Positions 15,436 through 60,705 of a stretch of DNA of 64,000 nt are shown piece by piece. The translations under genes and the position numbers were made by a program. Where the stretch lies: NCBI GenBank assembly GCA_041665405.1, contig JBAYIZ010000004.1, forward strand, positions 3,958-67,957. The letters run 5' to 3'. Origin of the DNA: Candidatus Magasanikiibacteriota bacterium. GTDB taxonomy: Bacteria > Patescibacteriota > Patescibacteriia > Magasanikbacterales > GWA2-37-8. The notes under the pieces are model-generated. The model saw only the letters and a list, made by a program, of their open reading frames with translations, was not told the origin of the DNA and did not search any database. The stretch's first letter is position 1, and each line of letters starts with the position of its first letter.

Positions 15436-15807
15436 CTATTCTTCGATTTTGTATTCCTTATTTTCACGCACTTCGCGTTTGTCTTTTTTATCTTTCTCTC
15501 TTTGGGTAGTTTTATGTTTTTTTATTTCTTCCTCCAAATGGTCACGTACTTTATCTATCGCTTTATACAGATCAGGTTCAGTTTTGGAAACAAACAAATC
15601 ATTGCCAGGTAAATCCAATTTGCATTCGCACACAAACACATTACCTTTGAGGTGATGTTGATTTTCTTTGCCGACTATTACATGAGCACGAACAATTTTG
15701 TCATAAAATTTATCGAGGCCGCTGATTTTTTTCTCTACGTAATCTTTTATCGCTTCAGTAAGGTCGATATTTTTACCGGTGATGTTTATTTGCATAGTCA
15801 TTAACAA
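15436..15807 (-). CDS. hpf: Ribosome hibernation promoting factor (HPF/RaiA family)
   Basis: 123 aa. It begins MQINITGKNIDLTEAIKDYVEKK, a classic HPF/YfiA N-terminus. Confidence 0.85.
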   Translation of the reverse strand: MLMTMQINITGKNIDLTEAIKDYVEKKISGLDKFYDKIVRAHVIVGKENQHHLKGNVFVCECKLDLPGNDLFVSKTEPDLYKAIDKVRDHLEEEIKKHKTTQREKDKKDKREVRENKEYKIEE

Positions 15808-15830
15808 TAAATAAATTAATTTAGTAAATT

Positions 15831-16769
15831 TTATTGTACAATTTCAACTTCCGTTTCTAGCTCAATCTTAAATTTATTATACGCTTTTTCTTTCATTATT
15901 TCAACAATTTTTAATACATCCGTCTGTTTAGCATCCTGAAAATTTACGATAAAATTACCGTGTTCATCGGAAATTTTTGCGCCGCCAACTTCCAGGCCTT
16001 TTATATCAAGCTGTTCCATCACCCAGCCTACCGGCACAGTGCCACGCTGTTGAAATAATTCTGGTAGTTCTTTGACATCCCCAGCCCATTTGGCCAATTT
16101 GATATTTTTGAAAAAACTGCCGGCTGAAGGGAAGCGGGGATAACGTCCAGCGCGGTGCTTCATATATCCTTGTACCTTTTCCATCATTTCTTTTTTGTCT
16201 CCAGGTTTTAGTTCAAAACAAGCACGCAAAACAATGTCTTTGTTAAATTTAAAAAGACTTTCACGATAACCAAATTGACAGTCGCTTTTTTGTACTTCAA
16301 TAACTTCACCATCGCGCCATATTTCAACTTTTGAAATAGTGTGTGCTATATCTAGGCCCATTGCTCCAGCATTGCCTCTTACTGCTCCGCCTATTGTACC
16401 TGGTATTCCAACGGCCCACTCTAAGCCAGCTAGGTTGTTTTTTATCGCCAAATTTAAAACTGCACCTAGTTGAGCGCCAGCTTCGGCGATTATGGTATTG
16501 TCCACCAATTCAATTTTCGATGTTTGGACTTTTATGGTAACTCCCTCTAGACCACTGTCTGGCATCAATAAATTCGAGCCACCACCAAGAATAAAATAAT
16601 TTACACCCTCTCCGTTGAGATAGTTGAGTAATTCAACAAATTTATTGGTATCTGAGACTCGGACGAGGTACTGAGCTGGTCCACCAATGGCGATAGTGGT
16701 AAGTTTAGAAAATGGTGCATTTGTTTTGAGATCTCCGTAATTTTTTAGTTCTGTATAGAGTTGATCCAT
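15831..16769 (-). CDS. murB: UDP-N-acetylenolpyruvoylglucosamine reductase MurB
   Basis: FAD-binding GGGSNLL and GIPGTIGGAVRGNAGAMG motifs are present. The start is more likely the internal Met at MDQLYTEL (~16769) than the longer ORF call at 16898. Confidence 0.8.
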   Translation of the reverse strand: MDQLYTELKNYGDLKTNAPFSKLTTIAIGGPAQYLVRVSDTNKFVELLNYLNGEGVNYFILGGGSNLLMPDSGLEGVTIKVQTSKIELVDNTIIAEAGAQLGAVLNLAIKNNLAGLEWAVGIPGTIGGAVRGNAGAMGLDIAHTISKVEIWRDGEVIEVQKSDCQFGYRESLFKFNKDIVLRACFELKPGDKKEMMEKVQGYMKHRAGRYPRFPSAGSFFKNIKLAKWAGDVKELPELFQQRGTVPVGWVMEQLDIKGLEVGGAKISDEHGNFIVNFQDAKQTDVLKIVEIMKEKAYNKFKIELETEVEIVQ

Positions 16770-16821
16770 AGAAAGTGTGATTAATTGCCAAAACAGCAGT
16801 ATTTTAGTATAATCTGAAGGT

Positions 16822-18051
16822 ATGAAATTTACCCTCAATAAACCGGTTATATATGTAGCTCGTGACCTCGAGCGTACTTTTGGTTTGCCGATTGTCACAA
16901 AAGGCTACTACATTATCTCAAATTATACCGCCTTTGCCAATAGTTTGGTGAAGGGATGTAAAAATGTGCTGTTAATAAAAAGTGATCATCTTTTGGATAC
17001 TAGAGAATTGTTGAATCATCCAATGGCTATAAATTTTATAAATGGGATAAACGACGCGCATATATTAGTCTTTAAAAACACTGCTCAAATCGAAAAGATT
17101 TGTTTGGAACATGATTGGACTTTGTTAAATCCATCGGCCGAACTGGCTTCAAGAGTGGAAGAAAAAATTTCTCAAGTAAAATGGTTGGGAGAACTGAAAA
17201 AAAATTTGCCGCCATTTCAGATTAAAATAGCCAAGGATGTAAAATGGTCTGGCAAATCTTTTATTTTACAATTCAATCGCGCTCATACTGGGAGTGGAAC
17301 AATTTTTGTTGAAAATGAAAAACAGTTGAAAGAAATTCAGGCAAAATTTCCTCTACGTGAAGTGCGGGTAACAAAATATATTACCGGACCAATGTTTACC
17401 AACAACAATGTGGTAGTTGGAAAAAAAGTATTATGTGGAAATATAAATTACCAAATTACAGGTTTGAAACCCTTTACCAATTTGCCATTCGCTACTATCG
17501 GCAATGATTGGGCTCTGCCAAATAAAATTTTAAGTGCCAAACAGAAAAAAGAATATTTGGCGATGGCACAAGCGATTGGCCACAAGTTAGCACGAGATGG
17601 TTGGAAAGGACTGTTCGGCATTGATGTGATTTTGGAGGAAAAAACGGGGAAGTTATATTTGATCGAAATAAACGCGCGCCAACCGGCTAGTACTAGCTTT
17701 GAATCGCAGTTACAACAATTTACAGACAAACTTGGATTGGCGACTTTTACAGCCCATATTTCGGCATTGTTGGGGGAAAAAGTAGTTGGGAAGTTGATAG
17801 TGATAAAATCAGGCGCACAGATTACTCAAAAGGTGACCGATGTTAAAAAAAATATTTCATTAAGTAGGATGTTATATAAAATTAATGATTTAAAAACGAA
17901 AAAAATTCAAATTTTCATTTATGAAAATGATAAACTAGAATCAGACTGGGTTCGAATGCAATCTATTAGCGGTTTGGTAAACAGTCACAATAATCTAAAT
18001 AAATTAGGTCACGAACTAAAAAATTTTTCAGAATCTATTTTAAATAATTAA
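16822..18051 (+). CDS. ATP-grasp domain ligase (unknown substrate)
   Basis: 409 aa. The C-terminal ATP-grasp signature GLFGIDVILEEKTGKLYLIEINARQPAS is present. Confidence 0.55.
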   Translation: MKFTLNKPVIYVARDLERTFGLPIVTKGYYIISNYTAFANSLVKGCKNVLLIKSDHLLDTRELLNHPMAINFINGINDAHILVFKNTAQIEKICLEHDWTLLNPSAELASRVEEKISQVKWLGELKKNLPPFQIKIAKDVKWSGKSFILQFNRAHTGSGTIFVENEKQLKEIQAKFPLREVRVTKYITGPMFTNNNVVVGKKVLCGNINYQITGLKPFTNLPFATIGNDWALPNKILSAKQKKEYLAMAQAIGHKLARDGWKGLFGIDVILEEKTGKLYLIEINARQPASTSFESQLQQFTDKLGLATFTAHISALLGEKVVGKLIVIKSGAQITQKVTDVKKNISLSRMLYKINDLKTKKIQIFIYENDKLESDWVRMQSISGLVNSHNNLNKLGHELKNFSESILNN

Positions 18052-19409: not shown

Positions 19410-19481
19410 GGCCTGTTCGTCTAATGGTTAGGACTTTACCTTCTCAAGGTAGAAATACGGGTTCGATTCCCGTACGGGCTA
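19410..19481 (+). tRNA. tRNA-Glu (anticodon CUC)
   Basis: The cloverleaf was folded by hand. The acceptor stem GGCCTGT/ACGGGCT contains two G-U pairs. The D-arm TTCGTCTAATGGTTAGGAC is tRNA-Glu-like. The anticodon loop is TTCTCAA and the T-loop is TTCGATT. Confidence 0.75.
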
Positions 19482-19483
19482 CA

Positions 19484-19607
19484 AAAGCGGAAGAGTACTT
19501 CCGGTCCAGTCACTCTGGTTCTAACGACATCAGCTTCGGTCTACAAAAGCGGAAGAGTACTTCCGGTCCAGTCACTCTGGTTCTAACGACCTCGGCTTCG
19601 GGCTACA
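19484..19607 (+). repeat. Tandem 62-nt direct repeat (2 copies). Each copy ends with the tRNA-Glu 3' terminus (GGGCTACA / GGTCTACA).
   Basis: Copies at 19484-19545 and 19546-19607 differ at 3 positions. Each unit contains the hairpins CGGAAG-AGTA-CTTCCG and CCAG-TCACT-CTGG. The array abuts the tRNA 3' end. Confidence 0.8.
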
Positions 19608-19679
19608 ACGAACTTTGCTATTAGAACCTCTGGTATATCCAGGGGTTTTTGTATATAATACCCGTTATTAAGATGTTAT

Positions 19680-20144
19680 ATGTATAAAATCGTCGCATAT
19701 GATGACACGATGAAAGATGGTGTTGTCCAATTTCTACTTTCAATATTAGAAGGAGAATTTAATCACACTGGCATTGAACGACCAGACATATATTCTATTT
19801 CAGCCACATATCAAAAAGATGGCGGTAATTTTTGGGTTGCTTTTGATCAAGATAAATTAATAGGAACCGCTGGTCTGATTAATTATGGTTCAAATAATGG
19901 ATATATAAAAAGAATGAGTGTTGATCCTAATTATCGTGGTAAGGGAATCGCTCAGAGCCTGTTAAATGTTTTATTAGATTTTGCCAAAGAATATAGTTAT
20001 AAAAAACTATATTTGGCCACTTCAGAAAATATGATAGCCGCTCAAAAATTTTATGAAAAAGAAGGGTTCAACAGAATACCAAAATTACCAAATGGTTTTC
20101 CTACATCTGGAGCCACAATTTTTTATAAATTGTCGTTAAATTAA
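19680..20144 (+). CDS. GNAT-family N-acetyltransferase
   Basis: 154 aa. It has the acetyl-CoA binding motif RGKGIAQSLL and a GNAT fold pattern. Confidence 0.75.
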   Translation: MYKIVAYDDTMKDGVVQFLLSILEGEFNHTGIERPDIYSISATYQKDGGNFWVAFDQDKLIGTAGLINYGSNNGYIKRMSVDPNYRGKGIAQSLLNVLLDFAKEYSYKKLYLATSENMIAAQKFYEKEGFNRIPKLPNGFPTSGATIFYKLSLN

Positions 20145-20155
20145 GTTTTTTCTGT

Positions 20156-20689
20156 ATGATAAAAACTCTAAGCAAAAAACTAATATATAAAAATCATTGG
20201 ATAACTGTTTGGGAAGATAAAGTAGATTTTGGTAAAAATAATAAAGGCATGTATTCGTATATGGAGCGTAATGATGCTGGCCCGATAATGATTGCCCTTA
20301 CCAAAGATAATAAAGTAGCACTATTAAAAGAATGGAGATATCCGATAAAGAAATACTCGCTAGGTTTTCCAGTTGGCGGTCGGGAAAAAAATGAGAGCTG
20401 GAGTAGTGCTGCTAAGCGTGAGTTGAAAGAAGAAACGGGTATTAGCGCGCGCAAGTGGACAAACCTTGGGAAAATATACATTGATCCTGGAGTGAGTACT
20501 CAATATTCTTATGTTTATCTGGCAGAGGATTTAATTTTTGGCGTTCAGGAGCTTGAACATTCTGAAAATCTTACAGTCAAATTTGTCTCTTTAGTTGAAT
20601 TAGAAAAACTGATTTTAAAAAGTGCAATAAAAAGTAATTGGTTATTAGCAAGCTACGCAAAATTATCTGTTTATTTAAATTCAAGATAG
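20156..20689 (+). CDS. NUDIX hydrolase
   Basis: 177 aa. The Nudix box GGREKNESWSSAAKRELKEETGI (GX5EX7REUXEEXGU) is present. Confidence 0.8.
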   Translation: MIKTLSKKLIYKNHWITVWEDKVDFGKNNKGMYSYMERNDAGPIMIALTKDNKVALLKEWRYPIKKYSLGFPVGGREKNESWSSAAKRELKEETGISARKWTNLGKIYIDPGVSTQYSYVYLAEDLIFGVQELEHSENLTVKFVSLVELEKLILKSAIKSNWLLASYAKLSVYLNSR

Positions 20690-20701
20690 TTTTGATAAAA
20701 A

Positions 20702-20730
20702 AGTTTGCCTACCGTCTCGGTAGGGTCTAC
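20702..20730 (+). repeat. Island repeat copy 1: AGTTTGCCTACCGTCTCGGTAGGGTCTAC with an upstream A-run
   Basis: Exact 29-mer with internal inverted repeat CCTACCG-TCT-CGGTAGG. It starts 12 nt after the NUDIX stop. Confidence 0.9.
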
Positions 20731-20736
20731 ACGCAC

Positions 20737-20766
20737 AATTACGCTAAAAATAGCGTAATTTTTGTT
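20737..20766 (+). terminator. Rho-independent terminator (AATTACGCTA-AAAA-TAGCGTAATT then TTTTGTT)
   Basis: Perfect 10-bp stem followed by a T-run, immediately after repeat copy 1. Confidence 0.7.
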
Positions 20767-20782
20767 ACATTTAATATGATAC

Positions 20783-20811
20783 TTGACATATATATAAAAT
20801 ATAGCTATAAT
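20783..20811 (+). promoter_or_regulatory. Consensus sigma70-type promoter TTGACA-N17-TATAAT upstream of the TA operon
   Basis: TTGACA at 20783-20788 and TATAAT at 20806-20811 with an exact 17-nt spacer. The antitoxin start lies ~34 nt downstream. Confidence 0.6.
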
Positions 20812-20844
20812 ATATACATATTAAATCAGTATAATTTACAGAAT

Positions 20845-21120
20845 ATGACCACCCAAGTAATTTTCAAAATTGATACAAAACTTAAAAATCGGGCGATGGC
20901 CAAGGCACAACACGAAGGTATCGCTTTCTCGTCAATTCTTAAATTTGCCACCAAAGCATTTGTTGATGGTGATTTGAATTTGGGTTTAATTGGAAGTGAA
21001 AAGTTCAACTCAACTGTTGGCAGGGATGTGGCAAATGCACAAAAAGATATTTCAAAAGGAAAAAATCTTTCGCCTAGTTTTTCTTCTGCCAAAGCAGCAA
21101 TTAATTTTCTTAAAAAATAA
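20845..21120 (+). CDS. RelB/DinJ-family antitoxin (type II TA)
   Basis: 91 aa from the internal Met (MTTQVIFKIDTKLKNRAMAKAQHEGIAFSSILKF). It has a DinJ-like N-terminus and immediately precedes a RelE-like ORF. The longer ORF call from 20638 runs over the repeat and terminator and is probably not translated. Confidence 0.6.
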   Translation: MTTQVIFKIDTKLKNRAMAKAQHEGIAFSSILKFATKAFVDGDLNLGLIGSEKFNSTVGRDVANAQKDISKGKNLSPSFSSAKAAINFLKK

Positions 21121-21384
21121 ATGAAACTTATGGAGGTAAGATTTCATAAAAATTTTACGAAAAAATTTAAGAAATTACCAGTTAAAATTCAGGAACAATT
21201 TTATGAACGATTAGAGTTGTTTTTTCAGAATAAGTTTGATATAACACTCAATAATCATTCGGTAGACAAAGTTTTCTCAAATTGTAATAGCATAAATATA
21301 AGTGGGGATTACAGAGCGATTTTTGAAGATCAGGATATTATAACTATATTTATTACAATTGGGACTCATTCGGATTTATATTAA
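21121..21384 (+). CDS. RelE/ParE-superfamily toxin (YafQ/RelE-like, type II TA)
   Basis: 87 aa. It reads KFKKLPVKIQEQFYERLELF ... GDYRAIFE ... ITIFITIGTHSDLY, typical of RelE/YafQ mRNA interferases. Its start overlaps the antitoxin stop. Confidence 0.7.
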   Translation: MKLMEVRFHKNFTKKFKKLPVKIQEQFYERLELFFQNKFDITLNNHSVDKVFSNCNSINISGDYRAIFEDQDIITIFITIGTHSDLY

Positions 21385-21387
21385 AAG

Positions 21388-21418
21388 AAAGTTTGCCTAC
21401 CGTCTCGGTAGGGTCTAT
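21388..21418 (+). repeat. Island repeat copy 2 (AAAGTTTGCCTACCGTCTCGGTAGGGTCTAT)
   Basis: It starts 4 nt after the toxin stop and has one terminal mismatch (C to T). Confidence 0.9.
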
Positions 21419-21437
21419 AAAAAAATTGAAAATTAAA

Positions 21438-21461
21438 ATACCTGAAAACAGGTATTTTTTT
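21438..21461 (+). terminator. Rho-independent terminator (TACCTG-AAAA-CAGGTA plus T7)
   Basis: Hairpin plus T-run 20 nt after repeat copy 2. Confidence 0.7.
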
Positions 21462-21470
21462 ATTTTATAA

Positions 21471-21499
21471 TTGACTGTATAGGGTATGGCTGTTAAAAT
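21471..21499 (+). promoter_or_regulatory. Promoter-like TTGACT-N17-TAAAAT, followed by TATAAT and a GGGAGG SD, feeding the GC-rich cassette
   Basis: The -35 and -10 boxes have 17-nt spacing. The SD GGGAGG at 21521-21526 lies 3 nt before the ATG at 21530. Confidence 0.5.
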
Positions 21500-21529
21500 A
21501 ATCCCGCCCTATAATCTCGGGAGGTCGTC

Positions 21530-22201
21530 ATGTTCAAGCACTTTTGTTTGTGCGTGTGGGCGTTCCAGATTGTCTGGGCGCAAGTCGAAATTTCACATTC
21601 AGACCGTCTGCGTCTGTGGATCAAGAGTCTGGCGCTGTACCTGTCGTTCCTCGCATTCACCGATCGCGAGCGACCGAAGGTTCAACTCAAACGAGCCATG
21701 ATCTCGGCAGTGCTCTCGGCGTTGTATGATTACGACACCGATTGGGTGCGGACGAGTGATCCGGCAAGTTCGATGTTCTACCAACAGGTGGACGTACTGC
21801 TCGCTGATCATCCAGCGCGGGAGGAATCCTCGACAACTGTCAAGAATCTCTTCCAGATGGACTGGGAGGGAAAGTTTTCGGCCGATGGTTTGGAGCGCGG
21901 CGGTGTTGCCCTTCGATCCTATAGGAAAATCATCTAAAGTCGGTGGTTGTCAAAATACACCGAGAAGGAGATTGATCACTTCGGTAGAAAATTGCAGATG
22001 GTGGATGACATGCTCGATCTCGAGAAGGACGCTGCGTCCGGAGATACGAACTGTTTTCACCTACCAGCTGCACAGACCTACCGCACTGAACTGCGGCGTT
22101 TCCTGAGGAGTGAGTTCTTCAGGGAGTTGGAGCAGAACTCCTGGGTCTACAAGTCTGTTCGCATGAGGTGCGAACGCAAACTCCAGAGAGGTGTACTGTG
22201 A
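21530..22201 (+). pseudogene. Isoprenyl-diphosphate-synthase-like (Asp-rich GxxLQMVDDMLDL motif) gene interrupted by an in-frame TAA at 21935-21937
   Basis: ~64% GC. ORFs 21530..21937 and 21947..22201 are in the same frame, separated by a single TAA. The downstream part has a trans-IPPS second-Asp-rich-motif-like GRKLQMVDDMLDLEKD...GDTNCFHLP. The whole is shorter than canonical IPPS, so the enzyme may be degenerate. Confidence 0.35.
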
Positions 22202-22992
22202 TTGCTAAGCTCATCTCGACCAGTCGGCCGATGACGGGCGTCTTCGCGGCGCTCCTTTCTGTCGCTGGATTTCGGTACTTCAACGACGCGCCGTGGATGC
22301 TCGTGTCGGCCACCGCCGTTCTCTTCTTGGGAATCACTTGGCACATCATGTCGTTCAACGATCTGATGGACAGGGTGAACGACCTGCGCAAGAACAAACG
22401 GTTCGCGTACGAAAACGAGTGGGCTCTGCGCCAGTACATCGCGGTGCTGAGTTCGGCCACGCTCACCGTCCTTGGTGCGGTCACTGTGTGGGACATGCGT
22501 GTCGGGTTCTTCTGCGCTTGTGTCTGGGCGCTCGGCGTTCTGTACTCGTTCGTGCCGCACTGGTTCGTCGTCCAGAATTTGATCGTCGCGGTGTGCTCTG
22601 GTTCGCCGGTACTCGTCGGCGTGGTCAACAGTGGGGAAGTGGATTACAGGCCGTTGCTCGTGTTTTGCGCCTTCGTCTTTATCATCTTCATTCGTGAAGT
22701 GTACAAAGACATCGAAGACCAGGACACGGACACCGGATACAAGACCACTCTTCCCATCGTGCTCGGCCACGAAGCGAGTGTGGAGGTGACTACTGGGCTG
22801 ACCTTCGGTTGGGCGGTTTGTCTGTTCCTTTACCCCGACACCTTGTTGGGTGTGATCGGGTTGGGTGGGGGTTCGGCTCTGTTGTCCATTCACCAAGAAC
22901 TCTTGTACGACCACAGGAAGTTCGCCCAAGCAAAAGCGGCTTTGGATTGGGTGATCCGAGCCGTCATCGTCAGCATCCTCATCACCCAATAG
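22198..22992 (+). CDS. UbiA-superfamily aromatic/glyceryl prenyltransferase
   Basis: GC-rich. It has the motifs FNDLMDRVNDL (NDxxDxxxD) and YKDIEDQDTDTGYKTTLP (DxxxD...TLP), with 7-8 predicted TM helices. A candidate GTG start at 22198 overlaps the upstream stop (GTGA). The ORF call gives an upstream alternative start at 22168. Confidence 0.7.
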   Translation: MIAKLISTSRPMTGVFAALLSVAGFRYFNDAPWMLVSATAVLFLGITWHIMSFNDLMDRVNDLRKNKRFAYENEWALRQYIAVLSSATLTVLGAVTVWDMRVGFFCACVWALGVLYSFVPHWFVVQNLIVAVCSGSPVLVGVVNSGEVDYRPLLVFCAFVFIIFIREVYKDIEDQDTDTGYKTTLPIVLGHEASVEVTTGLTFGWAVCLFLYPDTLLGVIGLGGGSALLSIHQELLYDHRKFAQAKAALDWVIRAVIVSILITQ

Positions 22993-23122
22993 GAGTGTTT
23001 TCGTTTCGTCCAACCACCTTGAATGCAGGTGGCATGGACGGAATTAAAAAACCGTTCGTGCTACCTGCTTTGATTCTTTATTTGGAATCAGAGCAAGGAG
23101 ATTTTTCACGAGCGGTTTTTTT

Positions 23123-23155
23123 AAAAAGTTTGCCTACCGTCTCGGTAGGGTCTAC
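23123..23155 (+). repeat. Island repeat copy 3 (AAAAAGTTTGCCTACCGTCTCGGTAGGGTCTAC)
   Basis: Exact core. It is preceded by a long-range inverted repeat AAAAACCGTTCGTG (23046) ... CACGAGCGGTTTTTTT (23107) and followed by a terminator. Confidence 0.9.
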
Positions 23156-23163
23156 TGTAAGGG

Positions 23164-23196
23164 ACTGCATCTTCAAAATGGTGCAGTTTTTGTTTT
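23164..23196 (+). terminator. Rho-independent terminator (ACTGCA ... TGCAGT plus TTTTTGTTTT)
   Basis: Hairpin plus T-run 8 nt after repeat copy 3. Confidence 0.6.
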
Positions 23197-23287
23197 GGTT
23201 AAGAGAAGAAATGGAGTTTGCCATTCGAAATTTTTGCATTAGAAATTGTAATATGATAGTATTATAGATATATAAATAATATCCAAT

Positions 23288-23866
23288 ATGGAAGATTGGC
23301 AAAAGAAATTAGAAGCAATGAGATCTGGTTTGCCAAAACAAACTGATTCTTTTGTAATAAATGATGCTTTAATTGTTCCTGCAGCTAAAAAAGAAATTGT
23401 AAGTGTAAAACCTAGCGATAGAGATAGTGTAGAAGTGGAAAAAGATGATGTCCGTACCAGAACTGATTATGATGAACAGGTTAAAAAGGAAATATTAGAA
23501 AAAGAATCATATGATAATGACCCTGATTTTTTAGAAGTAGTTATAATTTTAGGATTGAAAAAAGGCCAGAATAGATATTTTAGAATTCGAGATATTTTTT
23601 ATCATGCAACAAGAACGGATGTCGATTATGAAGTTAATAGATATCTTACATTTACTAATGAAAAGGTACTTTCAATTAAAAAAAAATTAAGAGTACAAGG
23701 ATACAAATCGGCTGCCTACAGATTTTGGTTGTCCGCACAGCCAGAAGGTATGCGATACGGAAAACAAGTAAAAGAAGAACGTTTGAGTCAGGCCGAATAT
23801 TATGCTAAACAAGCGAGAACTACTTTGCAAGAAATTATAGATGGTCACGAGCAGCGTCTTAAGTAA
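23288..23866 (+). CDS. Hypothetical protein (AT-rich cassette, charged/K-E rich)
   Basis: 192 aa. No recognisable motif. Its own promoter-like TTGCAT-N17-TAGTAT lies upstream at ~23234. Confidence 0.4.
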   Translation: MEDWQKKLEAMRSGLPKQTDSFVINDALIVPAAKKEIVSVKPSDRDSVEVEKDDVRTRTDYDEQVKKEILEKESYDNDPDFLEVVIILGLKKGQNRYFRIRDIFYHATRTDVDYEVNRYLTFTNEKVLSIKKKLRVQGYKSAAYRFWLSAQPEGMRYGKQVKEERLSQAEYYAKQARTTLQEIIDGHEQRLK

Positions 23867-23889
23867 TGATTTTTTGGGTTTAGATCAAT

Positions 23890-23918
23890 AGTTTGCCTAC
23901 TGTCTCGGTAGGGTCTAC
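23890..23918 (+). repeat. Island repeat copy 4 (AGTTTGCCTACTGTCTCGGTAGGGTCTAC)
   Basis: It starts 24 nt after the stop and has one stem mismatch (C to T, giving a G-U wobble if transcribed). Confidence 0.85.
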
Positions 23919-23975
23919 ACTGCTGTACACAGGTTCTGGGTGACCGAGAGGACTCAAATCTGTACAGAAAATAAA

Positions 23976-23999
23976 ATACCAATAAAATGGTATTTTTTC
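23976..23999 (+). terminator. Rho-independent terminator (ATACCA-ATAAAA-TGGTAT plus T6)
   Basis: Hairpin plus T-run. It is preceded by a second long hairpin (CTGTACA ... TGTACAG, 23924-23968). Confidence 0.65.
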
Positions 24000-24129
24000 T
24001 TATTTAATAAAATTATACATTTTTCACATCAGAGTATTGAATTTTTCTTAAGTACATGTTAGTTTTATCTTATTCGGTTTCTGCTGTCATGCGGCAGTAG
24101 GAGAAGACAACTCCCACAGGAGGTTCAAC

Positions 24130-25362
24130 GTGAACCGTCATCCGGTGCTGGATCTGTTTCTCAAGTATGCGGCCATCGACACCAAGTCCGGGGTGAATGA
24201 GGAGAATCACCCCAGCTCGGTCGGCCAGACGACCTTGATCGCGATGATCAAGCAGGACCTGCTCGCCAGCGGCGCTACGGAAGGCCAGTTCTTGCACTTC
24301 AAGGACGGCTCGATGTTGGTGCGCTTCGAGGGCACCGTGAACGGCAAGGCGATCTGCTATGCCGCTCACGTGGACACCAGTCCGGAAGCCGCCGGAGGTG
24401 CGACGTGCATCATCCACGAGTACGACGGTGGTGACATCGTCCTGCCCGAGGGGGATGTCGTCATCTCGGAGAAGGATCTCGCCGACAAGAAGGGCACGAT
24501 CGTGACCGCGAACGGACTGACCACGCTCGGTGCCGACGACAAAGCTGGTGTGGCCATCCTCTGCCAGATCGGATCCGACCTGGCCAACGGGACCATCGCC
24601 CACCATCCTCCCGTCGACCTGTACTTCTGCGTGGACGAGGAGATCGGACAGCTCGAGATTGGCGTCGTGCCGTCTGAGATCGTCGGTTCGTGGAGCGCTT
24701 TCATCACGCTCGACGGCGGCAATCCGCAGATGGTCGACACCAGCTGCTTCAACGGCTGGGAGACGATCGTCGAGTTCTTCGGCCAGAGCGCTCATCCTGG
24801 TGCTGACGGCGAGAACCTCAAGCCGGCCCACTACGCGATGGCGCGGCTCATCACCGAGCTGCAGGATACTTGGGTCGTCGATGCTCCCTGGATTTCCCGG
24901 GGCGATGCACCGTTCATCTACGTGTCCAGGGTGGGGGAAATGACCCCCGTTCATGCGCAAGCCGAGGTCATGCCGCGATCCTTCAATGCCGAGGACCTTC
25001 CCAAGTTCCACGAGCTGATTGTCGAGATCACCGAGAACATCGTCGCGTCGTACGGCGTCCGCTGTCAGATCAGTGGTCGTGGGTTGCTGTACGTCAACAC
25101 GGCCACGGCCATCAAGCAGCACCCTGAAGTCCTCGATCCCATCATGCACGCGATCCACGAGATCCTGCATACGACGGGCGAGAACGCCGTCCGCGGCGGC
25201 ACCGATGGTGCCATGGCGAACATGAAGTACCCCGGCCTGCCCTCTCCGAACCTCGGCGTCGGCATGTACAAGTTCCACGGCGTCCGCGAGTTCCTCGTCG
25301 TGAAGGAGATGCTCGCGATGTACGAGGTCATGAAGCTCCTCGTGCCAGCCTATGCCGACTAG
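24130..25362 (+). CDS. pepT: Peptidase T (tripeptide aminopeptidase, M20B family)
   Basis: 410 aa, ~66% GC with GC3 above 80%. Motifs HVDT, GADDKAG, DEEIGQ, GQSAHPG and FHGVRE are present. The SD AGGAGG lies 7 nt before a GTG start. The antisense ORF 24070..25278 is a GC-rich shadow. Confidence 0.8.
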   Translation: MNRHPVLDLFLKYAAIDTKSGVNEENHPSSVGQTTLIAMIKQDLLASGATEGQFLHFKDGSMLVRFEGTVNGKAICYAAHVDTSPEAAGGATCIIHEYDGGDIVLPEGDVVISEKDLADKKGTIVTANGLTTLGADDKAGVAILCQIGSDLANGTIAHHPPVDLYFCVDEEIGQLEIGVVPSEIVGSWSAFITLDGGNPQMVDTSCFNGWETIVEFFGQSAHPGADGENLKPAHYAMARLITELQDTWVVDAPWISRGDAPFIYVSRVGEMTPVHAQAEVMPRSFNAEDLPKFHELIVEITENIVASYGVRCQISGRGLLYVNTATAIKQHPEVLDPIMHAIHEILHTTGENAVRGGTDGAMANMKYPGLPSPNLGVGMYKFHGVREFLVVKEMLAMYEVMKLLVPAYAD

Positions 25363-25492
25363 TTCGTCCCGCCACAGTTCGTTTCCGCTCGCATCCCGCC
25401 AAATTGACTGGGTGCGACCACAAGTCCATCCAGTCCCCTTAATTGATAGTTTAATTCTGTCATTTAAGGGGAATGGATTTGTAAAATAATAA

Positions 25493-25530
25493 AACCACTT
25501 ATAGTAATATGAGTGGTTTTTTGTTGTTTT
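25493..25530 (+). terminator. Rho-independent terminator after pepT (ACCACTTA ... TGAGTGGT plus TTTTTTGTTGTTTT)
   Basis: Hairpin plus T-run. This cassette junction lacks the conserved 29-nt repeat. Confidence 0.6.
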
Positions 25531-25644
25531 AACTTTTAATAATAATTGACAAAAATAGTCTATAGTTGTAGTTTTAACCTAGGTTTCTTGTGTCGCAGGG
25601 TGGTCCTGCGCGAACCAGATCAAGCGCCTCAAGGAAGGTGTCCG

Positions 25645-27093
25645 ATGTTGTTGTCCCCGGTGAAGACCTACTTCCAAGACTTCGGCCAGCTGTTCAAGCT
25701 GCCGAGGGAGTTCTGGGCCATCCAGGCCTTGAACTTCGTGTATTGCGCGTTCTACTTCACGTTCGTGACGATCAGCGCGCTGCACCTGAGCCAGGATGTC
25801 GGCTTCAGCGATGAAGGTGCCGGCCTGCTCTTCGGCGTGTTCATGTTCGGCACGGCGATCATCCAGATCCTGATGGGTCCTGTCGTGGACCGTCTCGGTT
25901 TTCGGAAGACGCCGCTCGTGGCCGCCATGATCATCACCGTCGGCATGCTCGGCATCGGCTTCACGCCGCTCGTGTTCGGCGCCAACAACCTCGCTCGTGC
26001 TCTGATGGTGCTCTTCTACCTCGTGGCTATGGTCGGGAACGGTCTCATGTCCCCGGTTGTCACGGCAGGAGTGAAGAGATTCTCCAATTCCGAGACGCGC
26101 GGCGCGGGCTTCAACATGTGGTACCTGACTATGAATGTCGGAGCTATGCTGACCTTCGTCATCGACTTCATGCGTCGGCCGCTTGAGGACAAGGCCACCG
26201 CCGAACAACTCGCTGCCTTTCGTGATGGTGGGGGCAACTCCAACATCGTGTGGTACCTCGTCGGCCTGCTCGTCGTCTGCTGGCTGGTCGTGTACCTCTT
26301 CCTCAAGAAGGAGGCGCAGTTCGCCGAGTTCAACACGGCCGTGTCGCAGTCGAAGGTCGTCGCGACCAAGACCAAGCAACCGCCTTTCGGCGAGATGATC
26401 AAGGAGATCTGGGCGGACAAGGCGTTTCGCAAGGTCCTCGCCCTCCTGTTCTTCACCATCCCGGCTCACATTCCCTTCGTCGCGATCTTCGTGATCTATC
26501 CCAAGTACTACACGCGGGTGATCGCGCCGGACGTGAACCTGGGGATGTTGCAGTCGCTCAACCCGGTCATCATCGTCGTCGGCCTGCTCATGTTCGCGCC
26601 GTTGCTCAAGCGCTTCAGCGTGTACTGGGTTCTGACCGTCGGCATGTTCATCGGCGGAGCTTCCTGCCTGGTCCTCGCGATCCCTCCGCTGTGGCTCGGC
26701 AAGCTCTTCGGCATCAGCGCCATCGGTGATGTCTACCTCGCGATGGTGGGCGTGCAGATCGTGATCTTCTCGATGGGCGAATTCGTCTGGAGCCCTCAGC
26801 TCCAGGCCTACGTCGGCGCCATCGCTCCCGAAGGCAAGGAAGGCACCTACATGGGCGTGACGAGGTACCCCTACACCCTCGCCAAGTTGTTGGGCGGAGC
26901 CATCGGCGGCCTCCTCCTGGCGCACTACTGCCCTGAGGGAATCAAGCCGTTGCTCGAAGCTGGCAAGGTCGGGTACACCGACGGCCCCGAGTTCATGAAC
27001 CTGATCCTCGCCCTGTTCGCGCTCTCGAGCCCGATGTTCCTGATCCTGCTCCGGAAGAAGTACTACGTCGACACGCGCGCCGAGGCGAGCTGA
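25645..27093 (+). CDS. MFS-family transporter (12 TM helices)
   Basis: ~66% GC. The SD AAGGAAGG lies 6 nt before the ATG at 25645. There are two 6-helix halves with Gly-rich TM segments, and TTGACA at 25546 lies upstream. The ORF call's 25546 start includes the promoter. The antisense ORF 25579..27234 is a shadow. Confidence 0.7.
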   Translation: MLLSPVKTYFQDFGQLFKLPREFWAIQALNFVYCAFYFTFVTISALHLSQDVGFSDEGAGLLFGVFMFGTAIIQILMGPVVDRLGFRKTPLVAAMIITVGMLGIGFTPLVFGANNLARALMVLFYLVAMVGNGLMSPVVTAGVKRFSNSETRGAGFNMWYLTMNVGAMLTFVIDFMRRPLEDKATAEQLAAFRDGGGNSNIVWYLVGLLVVCWLVVYLFLKKEAQFAEFNTAVSQSKVVATKTKQPPFGEMIKEIWADKAFRKVLALLFFTIPAHIPFVAIFVIYPKYYTRVIAPDVNLGMLQSLNPVIIVVGLLMFAPLLKRFSVYWVLTVGMFIGGASCLVLAIPPLWLGKLFGISAIGDVYLAMVGVQIVIFSMGEFVWSPQLQAYVGAIAPEGKEGTYMGVTRYPYTLAKLLGGAIGGLLLAHYCPEGIKPLLEAGKVGYTDGPEFMNLILALFALSSPMFLILLRKKYYVDTRAEAS

Positions 27094-27290
27094 CGAATAC
27101 GACTTCACCACACCCCATCTTCCGAAATACGGTGGGGAAGAGCGACGCTGACTGTCGCTCCGTCCGAAAGGATGTTCATCTTGGCCACCCGGCCAGGTGA
27201 GGAGGATTTGGTCAGAACATTCGACCACCCGCACTCACTTAAATTCAGAATTCATTTCTGGCTTTAAGCGACGGGTGGTTTTTGTTTATG

Positions 27291-27322
27291 AAAAGTTTGC
27301 CTACCGTCTCGGTAGGGTCTAC
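27291..27322 (+). repeat. Island repeat copy 5 (AAAAGTTTGCCTACCGTCTCGGTAGGGTCTAC)
   Basis: Exact core. It is preceded by a terminator-like CCACCCG ... CGGGTGG plus TTTTTGTTT (27222-27288) and followed by a second terminator. Confidence 0.9.
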
Positions 27323-27333
27323 TAGTTTAAAAA

Positions 27334-27360
27334 TTCGCTTATCGAAGCGGATTTTTTGTT
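27334..27360 (+). terminator. Rho-independent terminator (TTCGCTT-ATCG-AAGCGG plus ATTTTTTGTT)
   Basis: Hairpin plus T-run 10 nt after repeat copy 5. Confidence 0.6.
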
Positions 27361-27367
27361 ATCTATC

Positions 27368-27396
27368 TTGACAATACTACTAAATTATGTTATTTT
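27368..27396 (+). promoter_or_regulatory. Promoter-like TTGACA-N17-TATTTT with an AGGAGG SD at 27414
   Basis: Spacing is 17 nt. The SD lies 7 nt before the ATG at 27427. Confidence 0.45.
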
Positions 27397-27426
27397 AATC
27401 AGTCCGAATTTTTCAGGAGGTTCAGA

Positions 27427-27708
27427 ATGCCCAAGCATCGCGCTGGTGGCAAGTACTCAGGTTCGCACACGACCATCATCGATGCCGCCGAGGTGGTCGC
27501 AGACACTGCGGCAAAATTGAAGGAGGTGAGCAAGATTATCCTTGGGATGATAAAGGTTGCGCCTTCAAAACAGGCGCGCCTCAAGATCACGGTCGTTCCG
27601 GCCGGGTTGGAGGTGGTGGTTTACGGCAGAATCTCTCTGCAGACCATCTTCGTCTACACCAAGGACACGAAGAACGTTCAGAGCGCTATCGAGCGAGCTT
27701 TCCGCTGA
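27427..27708 (+). CDS. Small hypothetical protein (93 aa, ~58% GC)
   Basis: A good SD is present. No recognisable motif. The 3' UTR is GC-rich and has two terminator-like hairpins before repeat copy 6. Confidence 0.4.
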   Translation: MPKHRAGGKYSGSHTTIIDAAEVVADTAAKLKEVSKIILGMIKVAPSKQARLKITVVPAGLEVVVYGRISLQTIFVYTKDTKNVQSAIERAFR

Positions 27709-27858
27709 AGGCAAACTCGTGCGCAAGCAACTGACGCTACACCGCGAAGCGTCTGGCAGTGTTGCAACTCGGAATCGCGGTACTGTCAAAAGCAGCTTTG
27801 TTAAAGGCTGTTTTTGTTTTTAAATACATTCGAACTATTTTCGAATTTTTTAATTTAA

Positions 27859-27891
27859 TAAAAAGTTTGCCTACCGTCTCGGTAGGGTCTA
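27859..27891 (+). repeat. Island repeat copy 6 (AAAAAGTTTGCCTACCGTCTCGGTAGGGTCTAC)
   Basis: Exact core. It is preceded by the terminator ATTCGAA-CTATT-TTCGAAT plus T6 (27827-27852) and followed by another. Confidence 0.9.
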
Positions 27892-27902
27892 CTAATCAAA
27901 AA

Positions 27903-27930
27903 ACCAGATCTAAAATTGTCTGGTTTTTTT
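27903..27930 (+). terminator. Rho-independent terminator (ACCAGA-TCTAAAATTG-TCTGGT plus T7)
   Basis: Hairpin plus T-run 11 nt after repeat copy 6. Confidence 0.65.
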
Positions 27931-27984
27931 GTATAAAAATAAAAATGTGCTAAAATATACAGTATTATAAATTTAATATAATTT

Positions 27985-28209
27985 ATGCAACTACCAAATA
28001 ATTTAACCGAAAATACTCAAATCGCGATTTTCAAAGGAAAAGAAATTAGGAAAACTATTTATCAGGGGGAATGGTGGTTTGTTATAGTTGATGTGATAGA
28101 GGCACTTACTGATTCGGTAAATCCAAAACAGTATTTGAAGAATATGCTTAATAGAGATACTGAACTTACCAAAGGGTGGGTTCAAATTGAACGCCCCCTT
28201 GGAAATTAA
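27985..28209 (+). CDS. Short protein (74 aa) with a DinD/Bro-N-like N-terminal motif
   Basis: IAIFKGKEIRKTIYQGEWWFVIVDVIEALTDS is paralogous to the ORF at 63346..63564 and to the N-terminus of the DinD-like gene at 39831. I recognise the motif as DinD/Bro-N-like (antirepressor-type). Bro-N proper is recalled from memory only. Confidence 0.5.
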   Translation: MQLPNNLTENTQIAIFKGKEIRKTIYQGEWWFVIVDVIEALTDSVNPKQYLKNMLNRDTELTKGWVQIERPLGN

Positions 28210-28477
28210 CAGAACTGAAAATTCAAAAGGTGTAGCAAAATTAAAAAGTGATGCCAAAGCCGGTGGTGATATCGCTGGCGGAGCAAGGAAGAAATTGGAA
28301 AAACGCCTTGGCCGATCGATTGTGACAAAGAGGAATTTTATTAAATGAAATGGCCTACAAATTTAATTTGACAAACAAAAAATAGAATGTTAAGCTAAAT
28401 ACATATGATTAAATTGTTCACCAACAATAATTGCAATAATAATTCCCTTTGCGGGTGAGTTTTGTTTTTTATAAGAT

Positions 28478-28508: not shown

Positions 28509-28580
28509 TCCTGGGTAGTTGAGTGGTACAACGCCACGCTGTTAACGTGGATATCCTTGGTTCGAATCCAAGCCCAGGAG
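28509..28580 (+). tRNA. tRNA-Asn (anticodon GUU)
   Basis: Hand fold: acceptor TCCTGGG/CCCAGGA, U8, D-stem GTTG/CAAC with a GG loop, anticodon stem CCACG/CGTGG with loop CTGTTAA, and T-arm CTTGG-TTCGAAT-CCAAG. Confidence 0.8.
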
Positions 28581-28695
28581 CGAACAAAGTGAGCGAAAGA
28601 CAGTAGCACACTCGCGTGCGCTACGTTTGGATGAGAAGTTTATGCCCCGAGGGGTAAATCCAAGCCCAGGAGCGAACAAAGTGAGCGAAAGACAG
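28566..28695 (+). repeat. 38-nt direct repeat (ATCCAAGCCCAGGAGCGAACAAAGTGAGCGAAAGACAG) at 28566-28603 and 28658-28695. The first copy includes the last 15 nt of tRNA-Asn.
   Basis: Two identical copies 92 bp apart. This is the att-site-like duplication pattern of tRNA 3' ends. Confidence 0.8.
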
Positions 28696-28707
28696 GAGCG
28701 CACATAA

Positions 28708-29804: not shown

Positions 29805-30155
29805 ATGTTAAGCAAACAAGAGCTTCAAAAAAACCGGGAAATACTCAGTGAAGCGGACAAAAGTATGGCCGCGACATTCAAAGTGCTTAGCGATGTGAAT
29901 CGCTATCGGATTTTTCGTATTCTTGTAGAACAGCCAAAGCTCACAGTGAGCGCCATTGCCTTGATTTTAGACATTTCTTTACCACTAGCATCGCAACATC
30001 TCAAAATTTTGGTGCAGGCCAATCTACTCAAAAAAGTGCGTGAAGGTAAAAAAGTTTTTCCAAAAATTAAACAGACCAATCCGTTCGTCCCGGCTATCCT
30101 TAAAACCATTAAACATGCTTATAAATTACGAAATAAAATAAACACAGAAATATAA
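29805..30155 (+). CDS. ArsR/SmtB-family HTH transcriptional regulator
   Basis: 116 aa. It reads FKVLSDVNRYRIFRIL...LTVSAIALILDISLPLASQHLKILVQANLL, a winged-helix ArsR pattern. A palindrome TTAACATA-ACTA-TATGTTAA overlaps its start codon. Confidence 0.7.
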   Translation: MLSKQELQKNREILSEADKSMAATFKVLSDVNRYRIFRILVEQPKLTVSAIALILDISLPLASQHLKILVQANLLKKVREGKKVFPKIKQTNPFVPAILKTIKHAYKLRNKINTEI

Positions 30156-39830: not shown

Positions 39831-40679
39831 ATGGAAAAAAATATAATAACTCATTTACATAAAACTTTTGAAGATTGTGTTCACATAGAAGATGATATTG
39901 AATTTTGGTTAGCAAGGGAATTACAGGTTTTGCTTGGGTATGAGAGGTGGGAGAATTTTGAAAATGCCATAAAAAGGGCAAAAATTGCTTGTACAAATGC
40001 TAAAAATGATGTTTTGGACCATTTTCGTGGCGTCACGAAAATGGTTGATGTTGGTTCTAGAACGACTCGTGAGATAGAGGATATAAAACTCACCCGTTAC
40101 GCGTGCTATCTTATCGCTCAAAATGGCGACCCACGCAAGGATGAAATCGCTTTTGCTATGACATATTTCGCGGTTCAGACCCGTAAACAAGAAATTATAG
40201 AACAGCGATTGGCTCAGTGGGATCGTTTACATGCGCGAGAAAAACTTTCCATATCCGAAAAAGGGCTTTCAGGTATATTATTTGAGCGAGGTGTTGATAA
40301 TGTAGGTTTTGCACGAATTCGCAGTAAGGGCGACGCGGCGTTATTTGGCGGGTATACCACAAGCGAAATGAAAAATAAATTAAGAGTTCCAGTTAGCCGT
40401 CCACTTGCGGATTTTTTGCCAAGTGTAACTATAAAAGCTAAAGATTTGGCGACTGAAATAACCAGCCATAATGTTAAAAAAGATCAATCGCTTAATGGCG
40501 AGCCGATAATCACCGACGAACATATAAAAAATAATCAAAATATGCGTGATATGTTGGTCAAGAGTGGTATCTATCCGGAGTCATTGCCACCGGAGGAAGA
40601 TGTTAAAAAAATGGAACGAAAAATCAAATCCGCGGATAAAAAATTGGTAAAAAATGTTAAGAAGTTAATAAGGGAATAA
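39831..40679 (+). CDS. DinD-like protein (DNA-damage-inducible protein D family)
   Basis: 282 aa. The N-terminal ~110 aa (FEDCVHIEDDIEFWLARELQVLLGYERWENFENAIKRAKIACTNAKNDVLDHFRGVTKMVDVGSRTTREIEDIKLTRYACYLIAQNG) closely follows E. coli DinD as I recall it. Confidence 0.6.
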   Translation: MEKNIITHLHKTFEDCVHIEDDIEFWLARELQVLLGYERWENFENAIKRAKIACTNAKNDVLDHFRGVTKMVDVGSRTTREIEDIKLTRYACYLIAQNGDPRKDEIAFAMTYFAVQTRKQEIIEQRLAQWDRLHAREKLSISEKGLSGILFERGVDNVGFARIRSKGDAALFGGYTTSEMKNKLRVPVSRPLADFLPSVTIKAKDLATEITSHNVKKDQSLNGEPIITDEHIKNNQNMRDMLVKSGIYPESLPPEEDVKKMERKIKSADKKLVKNVKKLIRE

Positions 40680-60489: not shown

Positions 60490-60559
60490 TGGCCGAGTGC
60501 GCCGCCTTGGAAAGGCGGTATACCGCAAGGTATCGAGGGTTCGACTCCCTCTCTCTCCG
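60475..60559 (+). tRNA. tRNA-Ser (anticodon GGA), class II with long variable arm
   Basis: Acceptor GGAGAGG/TCTCTCC, anticodon stem CCGCC/GGCGG with loop TTGGAAA, variable hairpin TACC-GCAA-GGTA, and T-arm GAGGG-TTCGACT-CCCTC. Its 5' end overlaps the lgt stop region. Confidence 0.75.
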
Positions 60560-60596
60560 CTGGGTCACGCTTATATGAGCGACTTGCTCATATTCC

Positions 60597-60629
60597 AAAA
60601 ACATCTCGATTATGTCGGGATGTTTTTTT
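60597..60629 (+). terminator. Rho-independent terminator (AACATC ... GATGTT plus T7) after tRNA-Ser. A perfect hairpin ATATGAGC-GACTT-GCTCATAT (60573-60593) precedes it.
   Basis: Stem-loop plus T-run. Confidence 0.55.
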
Positions 60630-60705
60630 ATTGACAAATATATTTATTTATCATAGGCTTTCAACAATGAGACTTCGCGGATCTTCCGCAAGGAAGGAGG
60701 CACTC

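Follow-up and report, generated by a model that had tools for sequence, protein, structure and literature searches.

In the dif sites of Escherichia coli and Bacillus subtilis, the inner halves of the two arms are palindromic and the outer halves divergent, the latter telling XerC from XerD, and heterology in the overlap region blocks exchange by tyrosine recombinases. Arrays of integrative mobile elements exploiting Xer (IMEX) are flanked by direct dif-like copies, and in the hyperplastic regions of T4-type phages, promoter-early stem-loop (PeSL) motifs flank mobile open reading frames (ORFs), for which module shuffling has been proposed. Elements of the IS200/IS605 type transpose as single-stranded DNA (ssDNA), coupled to replication. 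Plasmid dif (pdif) modules, such as those of Acinetobacter plasmids, carry no recombinase of their own, depend on host XerC/D in trans, and include toxin-antitoxin modules (PMC13141974). In the tycheposon islands of Prochlorococcus, serial integration pushes older elements inward and leaves att remnants behind, and integrases are lost (10.1101/2020.12.28.424599). Repetitive extragenic palindromes (REPs) are mostly found just 3' of ORFs, between unidirectional genes, and often contain G-T stem pairs; the GTAG-23 family of T. roseum is clustered, not dispersed, and as far as the survey goes no REPs have been described in Patescibacteria (PMC3733652). Here, we analyzed a 29-nucleotide (nt) element, AGTTTGCCTACCGTCTCGGTAGGGTCTAC (the 29-mer), that recurs in one 64,000-nt stretch (the window; contig JBAYIZ010000004.1, assembly GCA_041665405.1) of a Candidatus Magasanikiibacteriota genome. 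Bacteria of the candidate phyla radiation (CPR)/Patescibacteria have tiny genomes with few recognized mobile elements and, natural competence aside, little is known of how they gain genes.

The 29-mer is present in six copies spanning 20702-27892, all co-oriented on the plus strand, of which four are exact and two have a single change (2 substitutions in 174 nt):

20702..20730, plus strand: copy 1, exact, with the NUDIX stop codon 12 nt upstream.
21390..21418, plus strand: copy 2, last base C>T, with the stop codon of a ParE/YafQ-like toxin 5 nt upstream.
23127..23155, plus strand: copy 3, exact, 3' of the strong terminator of the UbiA module (23050-23117), 134 nt past the stop codon.
23890..23918, plus strand: copy 4, C12>T in the 5' stem arm, with the stop of a 192-aa gene 23 nt upstream.
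27294..27322, plus strand: copy 5, exact, 3' of the MFS/POT gene terminator (27223-27280), 200 nt past the stop codon.
27864..27892, plus strand: copy 6, exact, 3' of the DUF2103-module terminator (27787-27816) and a second hairpin, 155 nt past the stop codon.

The array is real and far from chance, as 100 shuffles of the window yielded no match, confirming the six near-invariant, co-oriented copies confined to one stretch that had been noticed in an earlier reading of the DNA alone (the sequence-only reading). The coordinates given there hold for five copies; the last begins at 27864, not 27863. Neighboring copies are 570-3404 nt apart. Neither the window nor the 5.7 kb past its end contained another copy, intact or decayed, when up to 10 mismatches were allowed, and a search of the window for half-sites and for inverted half or full copies detected none. 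When the copies were aligned with 50 nt of flank, conservation ended abruptly on both sides, and the surrounding sequence was unrelated between copies, as the sequence-only reading had stated, save for an A-rich run of ~4 nt on the 5' side. The 29-mer folds into a perfect 7-bp stem with a 3-nt loop, at ~-10.6 kcal/mol both alone and in context. Its non-pairing flanks are invariant to the same degree as the stem, and the C12>T change in copy 4 preserves pairing on the plus strand only, as G-T/G-U.

All copies lie within a 9-kb interval bounded by tRNA-Glu (19410-19482) and tRNA-Asn (28509-28581). Counting every gap of at least 35 nt, the 29-mer occupies 6/7 intergenic gaps in this island and 0/21 elsewhere (P ~2e-5 under uniform placement). 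The host DNA around it is ~36% GC, with a GC content at third codon positions (GC3) of 0.2-0.3, and the surrounding genes are typical for CPR (MraY, Mur ligase, PBP, MurB, GatC, and a RecQ-type helicase). The island comprises the following borders and modules:

19410..19607, plus strand: left border, tRNA-Glu(CTC) and two 62-nt tandem units.
19608..20701, plus strand: module S0, terminator, promoter, acetyltransferase, and NUDIX genes, GC3 0.21-0.28.
20731..21389, plus strand: module S1, perfect TTGACA-17-TATAAT promoter, 91-aa antitoxin-like gene, and ParE/YafQ/RelE-like toxin gene, GC3 0.24-0.27.
21419..23126, plus strand: module S2, promoter, split ORF (21530-22201), UbiA prenyltransferase gene (22198-22992), and its own terminator, GC3 0.65-0.77.
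23156..23889, plus strand: module S3, gene for a 192-aa protein of a small, all-helical family, GC3 0.19.
23919..27293, plus strand: module S4, M20/M42-type peptidase gene (24130-25362) and POT-like MFS transporter gene (25645-27093), GC3 0.84 and 0.88.
27323..27863, plus strand: module S5, promoter, DUF2103 gene (27427-27708), and two terminator hairpins, GC3 0.72.
27985..28348, plus strand: S6, degraded Bro-N/antirepressor-like gene 3' of the last copy, GC3 0.29.
28509..28703, plus strand: right border, tRNA-Asn(GTT), whose 3' 47 nt recur 92 nt downstream.

A 29-mer is present at each of the six module borders, and each of these coincides with a change in GC3, which adds to the placement at gene-cassette borders proposed in the sequence-only reading. 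The sole island gap that lacks a 29-mer separates the peptidase gene from the peptide transporter gene; these two have equal GC3 and linked functions, and each has its own promoter and terminator. A single acquired unit would be expected to look like this pair. At the left end, S0 is bordered not by a 29-mer but by a core that resembles the tRNA-Glu 3' end, and it shows the same core-terminator-promoter layout behind that copy of the tRNA end. Both 62-nt tandem units end in a copy of the tRNA-Glu 3' end, TTCGG[G/T]CTACA, with true copies at 19535 and 19597 only. At the right end, the duplicated 47 nt comprise the 3' end and trailer of tRNA-Asn (28565-28703). From their sequence, the duplications at 19475-19607 and 28565-28703 look like att remnants of past integrase activity.

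The junctions share an anatomy beyond the 29-mer itself:

20737-20760, 21435-21458, 23160-23191, 23973-23996, 27329-27356, and 27898-27929, plus strand: terminators after copies 1 to 6, all different in sequence.

A sigma-70-like promoter lies 3' of each of these terminators, such that every module has its own promoter. An intrinsic terminator had been reported within 5-20 nt of each copy; it begins 4-16 nt downstream of five copies, but copy 4 is followed first by a long hairpin that is not a terminator and has its terminator 54 nt downstream. The three AT-rich units place the 29-mer 5-23 nt after the stop codon, while in the three GC-rich units the strong terminator of the gene itself intervenes, leaving copies 3, 5, and 6 between two terminators. 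Apart from words of the -35 region, a search for a second motif common to the junctions found none. Because half of the copies have a terminator upstream that shields them from transcription, and because the stem and the non-pairing flanks are equally invariant, the evidence argues for a DNA-level over an RNA-level role for the 29-mer.

An origin of the array as an assembly chimera or artefact was rejected, since its junctions consist of unique sequence and are seen again in independent assemblies. The array genes encode the consecutive proteins MFA6423994-MFA6424002 (locus tags WCV83_01615-01655 in the genome), and a 75-kb ENA contig (ERZ27249449 k141_1534100, L004) carries an identical array, its 7 single-nucleotide polymorphisms (SNPs) relative to the window all falling outside it. 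Parts of the array, including 29-mers, also recur in contigs L005 and L014 of JGI 3300037810, the former differing by a SNP in the antitoxin gene, and in a Logan contig from SRR6484324 (L006), which ends exactly where the first 31-mer common to several copies ends, fitting assembly at k=31. Ends of JGI contigs near AT/GC junctions were unusable as evidence of strain variation, as the region is simply fragmented, to judge from a 990-bp JGI contig.

Read at the DNA level, the 29-mer parses as 11-7-11, AGTTTGCCTAC - CGTCTCG - GTAGGGTCTAC, in which an asymmetric 7-bp center separates two 11-bp arms that are inverted repeats over their inner 5 bp and diverge over their outer 6 bp. The sequence-only reading had ruled out a Xer site by the 3-nt center of the hairpin, an objection that fails because the inner parts of dif arms are palindromic too. 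By its sequence, the asymmetric center would set orientation, and the layout would be that of a tyrosine-recombinase core of the dif or lambda-core type. Under this parse, the C12>T change of copy 4 is the first base of the overlap region and the C>T change of copy 2 the outermost arm base. The right arm with its next base (GTAGGGTCTACA) matches the 3' end of tRNA-Glu (GTACGGGCTACA) at 10/12 positions, in register and on the same strand, and only three other matches of this quality exist in the window; the likeness to tRNA-Glu was noticed post hoc. On the minus strand, the arm GTAGGCAAACT matches the XerD arm of the B. subtilis dif at 8/11 and that of E. coli at 6/11 positions (dif sequence as given in PMC3025954).

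The reading that we tentatively prefer, with a confidence that stops short of even, is that the 29-mer is the junction core left by the serial site-specific insertion of modules, by an enzyme acting in trans. Small self-contained modules (terminator, promoter, gene or genes, terminator) would be inserted one by one at the tRNA-flanked hotspot, a recombinase from elsewhere in the genome or from a helper element joining the site borne by the module with the chromosomal site. Every insertion would then add one module and one further direct-repeat 29-mer, and exchange between two direct copies could release a module as a one-site circle; alternatively, the catalyst may be an HUH enzyme working on the folded hairpin and its 3' tail. 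What is observed is the anatomy of the junctions, their restriction to the island, the compositional borders at which they lie, and the lack of a nearby recombinase, whereas the insertion mechanism and its enzyme are inferred. Sharp edges, unrelated flanks, so few substitutions, and the lack of decayed copies are typical of cores that are regenerated by strand exchange, and duplicated tRNA 3'-end segments at both island borders are a hallmark of integrase traffic. These tRNA-end remnants fit serial integration of the kind known from tycheposon islands (10.1101/2020.12.28.424599).

Several results weigh against site-specific insertion. The resemblance to the tRNA end and the 8/11 match to a XerD arm are post hoc, statistically weak, and only suggestive, and a 7-bp spacer without the ATAA/TTAT inner motif does not make a canonical dif. 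The check for a nearby recombinase proposed in the sequence-only reading found no recombinase, RAYT (REP-associated tyrosine transposase), relaxase, or intI/Phage_integrase (IntI) domain annotated on the ~70 kb contig (Pfam, positions 1420-71112), which is compatible with enzymes supplied in trans, the arrangement known from pdif modules and IMEX elements. The comparison of arrays that it also proposed showed no cassette gain, loss, or shuffling, with the gene order the same in all assemblies of the population and no polymorphism in presence/absence or order seen. Searches for the exact 29-mer and its 19-nt core in GTDB representative genomes, JGI metagenome contigs, and IMG/VR gave three chance matches only, all inside high-GC coding regions. 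Compared by blastn with PLSDB plasmids and INPHARED phages, the 29-mer likewise had no match beyond chance ones of 21 nt (mycobacteriophage terminase genes). The 29-mer was thus not found in the collections searched, and a second array for comparison is therefore lacking. The locus of the closest NUDIX ortholog (71% identity, L013) is neither syntenic nor furnished with a 29-mer, and it therefore offers no empty site for comparison either. A cassette-junction site is the best-supported interpretation; a "new kind of cassette-junction site", in the words of the sequence-only reading, we put forward as a hypothesis because neither gain, loss, or shuffling nor a recombinase was found.

A serious, if somewhat unlikely, alternative is that the 29-mer is a GTAG-tagged REP, a miniature non-autonomous element moved as ssDNA by an HUH transposase (RAYT or IS200-like) whose gene lies elsewhere. 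The element would have spread recently and locally, into permissive intergenic spots 3' of genes in this island, and its link to cassettes would be incidental. This option was set aside too quickly in the sequence-only reading, given that the minus strand, GTAG-AC-CCTACCG-AGA-CGGTAGG-CAA(ACT), has an unpaired tag and a dinucleotide ahead of a 7-bp stem with a 3-nt loop, then a conserved 3-nt motif on the far side, and so fits the published GTAG-1/2 format, in which stems measure 6-9 bp and loops 2-3 nt (PMC3733652). With 29 nt, a 7-bp stem, and a 3-nt loop, the element also falls within the general definition of a REP as a palindromic unit of 20-40 bp with a stem of 6-13 bp and a short loop, and the unpaired GTAG stands at one end (minus strand 5'-GTAG-AC-stem), reading ATAG in copy 2. 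The near-identity of the copies fits a recent burst, and their uniform orientation in one replichore, over which the sign of the GC skew is constant, would be expected of replication-coupled ssDNA transposition. However, many of the 21 unoccupied gaps outside the island are equally 3'-proximal and unidirectional, and the one-to-one fit with compositional borders is not predicted by a REP. The six single direct copies include no inverted (head-to-head or tail-to-tail) dimers, which dominate in most REP families (PMC3733652). Diverged copies are absent altogether, six copies lie in 7 kb with none in the other ~63 kb examined, and no Y1 transposase or RAYT is annotated on the contig (1420-71112).

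Two further explanations dispense with an enzyme that moves DNA at the 29-mer. It is unlikely that the 29-mer is a cis-regulatory or structural site without a role in gene movement, be it a protein-binding operator or insulator on duplex DNA (with the ArsR/HTH_5 regulator at 29805-30155 as one conceivable partner) or an RNA hairpin at the mRNA 3' end (a stabilizer, or a processing or antitermination signal acting with the downstream terminator). Such a role would agree with the sense orientation of all copies relative to the upstream gene, with the terminator 3' of all six, with three copies lying 5-23 nt past a stop codon with no terminator between, and with the lone stem substitution, which keeps pairing only on the plus strand (G-U); the 7-3-7 palindrome matches a dimeric helix-turn-helix operator in size, and in S1 as well as S2 its center precedes the predicted start site by 102 nt. 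Nonetheless, the spacing from 29-mer to next promoter varies overall (~95-128 nt), the three copies behind strong terminators would rarely be transcribed, and a plain hairpin has no need of invariant non-palindromic flanks. One downstream site shared by toxin-antitoxin, prenyltransferase, and peptidase genes lacks an obvious logic, copies would be expected at other genes in the remaining 57 kb, where there are none, and Rfam gave no match for the 29-mer. More improbable still is an enzyme-free origin, in which the copies are short patches of homology reused by RecA-type recombination or replication template switching as circular or linear DNA is captured after natural transformation, much as proposed for PeSL motifs. 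Patescibacteria are naturally competent, and the repeat, at 29-33 nt, is near the shortest length at which RecA-dependent exchange is known to work. Homology exchange does not, however, produce sharp, identical 29-nt edges at six independent junctions; it would also tolerate drift, yet no drifted copies exist, and the asymmetric, fully conserved flanks suggest specific recognition. An enzyme-free route accords better with a repeat found beside a homologous peptidase gene in another genome, which includes an ordinary terminator and looks like duplicated homology more than like an enzyme site.

This second repeat is located in L011 (GCA_964359005.1, a Magasanikbacteria metagenome-assembled genome [MAG]), where an 87-nt direct repeat of 98% identity flanks the homologous peptidase unit (728-814 and 2268-2354). 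It consists of a hairpin with a 7-bp stem (CCAGCGT-9-ACGCTGG), a spacer, and an intrinsic terminator, each copy being followed by a promoter, and its sequence is unrelated to the 29-mer. By analogy, the L011 parallel supports the general idea that units are inserted at a hairpin-containing repeat or along with one, whatever the mechanism. Extending site-specific insertion to the lineage, we consider it rather doubtful, though worth stating, that Magasanikbacteria (perhaps CPR) possess a previously undescribed gene-capture system that stacks complete transcription units at a 29-bp hairpin-forming site by a recombinase or HUH enzyme in trans, with the 87-nt repeat of L011 as a counterpart. Such a system would amount to a "promoter-carrying integron" without a linked integrase, bringing genes with a GC3 of up to 0.88 into a host with a GC3 of ~0.25 at a lineage-specific site.

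The GC-rich genes have relatives that bear on their source. The nearest relatives of the peptidase (61%-67% identity) are in other Magasanikbacteria MAGs or similar contigs, and its genes are 57%-63% GC in all four contigs compared (the window, L010, L011, and L012). In the window, L010, and L011, the gene is a GC-rich island amid lower GC, with three different genomic contexts, whereas L012 is GC-rich throughout; its neighbors are OPT transporters in L010 and L012 and the POT-like MFS transporter in the window. The MFS transporter family is narrow, with 23 detectable members, one of them from Peregrinibacteria, and the AT-rich terminator behind the peptidase gene is conserved between the window and L012, at 66% protein identity. 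Recent capture from an actinobacterial host was rejected on the grounds that the peptidase and MFS families are essentially CPR-restricted and that this terminator is conserved in L012, and no relatives of the peptidase or of the 192-aa gene that would indicate a phage origin were present in IMG/VR. The peptidase GC3 stays at 0.8-0.9 despite only 61%-67% protein identity.

A seventh GC-rich mini-unit (60592-61235) is located directly 3' of tRNA-Ser (60475-60560) and has no 29-mer. Its GC-rich ORF (within 60631-61041) comes with a terminator, with an ATTGACA promoter, and with a second, long hairpin terminator (61166-61235), the last being homologous to the MFS-gene terminator (27218-27285). 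Such units therefore circulate in this part of the CPR independently of the 29-mer, which is a feature of one hotspot; GC-rich units with AT-rich control regions are not tied to it.

Among the remaining module genes, the S2 reading frame at 21530-22201 is broken by an in-frame TAA (21935-21937), and the same stop occurs in a JGI contig, whose protein P0246 ends at the same residue. A DDxxD-like motif downstream of it (VDDMLDLEKD) suggests, at the sequence level, a broken prenyl-synthase-like partner of UbiA. For the 192-aa protein of S3 (23288-23866), the family numbers 35 representatives at E<=1e-3. AlphaFold gives a confident, all-helical model (predicted local distance difference test score of 88.6) for which Foldseek found no counterpart in PDB, and the protein has no match in Pfam or PHROG; as a candidate enzyme, it is not recognizable as a recombinase. 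The two S6 ORFs correspond to opposite ends (N- and C-terminal) of a single 274-aa PHROG family; split into these pieces, the Bro-N gene is a pseudogene. Bro-N paralogs, intact or short, are also present at 39831-40679 and 63346-63564, with 71% nt identity between 28019-28094 and 63359-63434. Public ENA gene calls for L004 are on the wrong strand at 22147-23013, 24070-25278, and 25579-27234 (288, 402, and 551 aa, with no Pfam matches), and automated annotation therefore hides the UbiA, peptidase, and MFS genes.

Elsewhere in the window, the cumulative GC skew has an origin-like minimum near 16.5-16.8 kb, where gene orientation turns from minus to plus, and rises from there through the array. 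The skew-switch region (15800-16900) has an intergenic gap of only 52 nt and no DnaA-box cluster, and across the window parS-like matches and DnaA-box clusters were at chance level only. An 827-aa Big_13/Ig-like surface protein gene holds four tandem 267-nt repeats (35715-36815; 68%-72% identity).

If the 29-mer is a junction core, it would provide a concrete and testable route of gene gain in this major, uncultivated branch of the bacteria, by which ready-to-express units of foreign composition enter at one precise site, and a possible landing pad for genetic tools. If it is a REP, GTAG-type REPs would be extended to Patescibacteria, with a distribution that is unusual in being confined to one island. 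In both cases, the sharp mosaic of GC3 0.2 versus 0.65-0.88, which recurs for the same peptidase family in several Magasanikbacteria MAGs, merits an explanation.

Some known kinds of repeats are excluded. In agreement with the sequence-only reading, the array is not one of clustered regularly interspaced short palindromic repeats (CRISPR), as the copies are 570-3404 nt apart with genes between them (versus spacers of 20-70 nt), no cas domains are present, and an Rfam search of 18.5-30 kb at E<=1 returned only two tRNAs and sub-threshold noise, with no CRISPR-DR. Nor is it parS, the 16-bp palindrome TGTTNCACGTGAAACA that acts free of orientation near parAB and the origin, to which the 29-mer has no similarity and from which its oriented, non-palindromic flanks set it apart. 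Like integron arrays and clusters of attC sites lacking integron-integrases (CALINs), the locus combines co-oriented small units of mixed origin, a toxin-antitoxin pair, and a hairpin-forming site that ends each unit. However, attC sites are imperfect R''-L''...L'-R' structures of 57-141 nt with extrahelical bases, versus 29 nt and a perfect 7-bp stem here, and integrons have an adjacent intI with attI and Pc and mostly promoterless cassettes, whereas each unit here has its own promoter and terminators. The sequence-only reading was right to exclude attC, as GTTTGCC does not fit GTTRRRY and no RYYYAAC...GTTRRRY cores are present.

The PeSL motifs of phages are similar in being short, conserved stem-loops that recur between independently expressed small ORFs in a hypervariable region, but their conserved unit includes the promoter, whereas here only the 29-mer is conserved, promoters and terminators differ, and the setting is a bacterial chromosome. 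The tycheposon islands are likewise tRNA-adjacent, with partial duplications of tRNA 3' ends and cargo lined up between direct repeats. Here, by contrast, the repeat between modules is not a tRNA fragment and merely resembles the tRNA-Glu 3' end (10/12), and the modules are far smaller (0.7-3.4 kb), none with an integrase or integrase remnant.

Xer systems (pdif/dif and IMEX) offer sites of ~28-29 bp with two distinct arms and an asymmetric, orienting spacer, and Xer-dependent modules, like those described here, are of 0.5-5 kb, with their own promoters, toxin-antitoxin pairs, and no recombinase of their own. Compared with dif (28 bp, with 11-bp arms and a 6-bp spacer), the 7-bp spacer of the 29-mer is one base longer, and its inner motif is CCTAC/GTAGG rather than the ATAA/TTAT of the dif consensus (XerD arm TTATGTWAAMT), which it does not match; the likeness to a dif XerD arm (8/11, B. 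subtilis) is confined to the outer part of one arm. Furthermore, pdif modules need alternating site orientation, whereas all six 29-mers are direct and on the plus strand, and chromosomal dif/IMEX sites are at the replication terminus, whereas the 29-mer island is near an origin-like GC-skew switch. GTAG REPs, for their part, share with the 29-mer its size, stem, loop, tag, far-end motif, and position 3' of ORFs between co-directional genes; they differ from what is seen here, namely six copies only, in one 7-kb stretch, with no dimers and no RAYT gene on the contig. To our knowledge, neither att/dif-like junction cores nor GTAG REPs have been described in this phylum, and it is with these two known kinds that the 29-mer is best filed.

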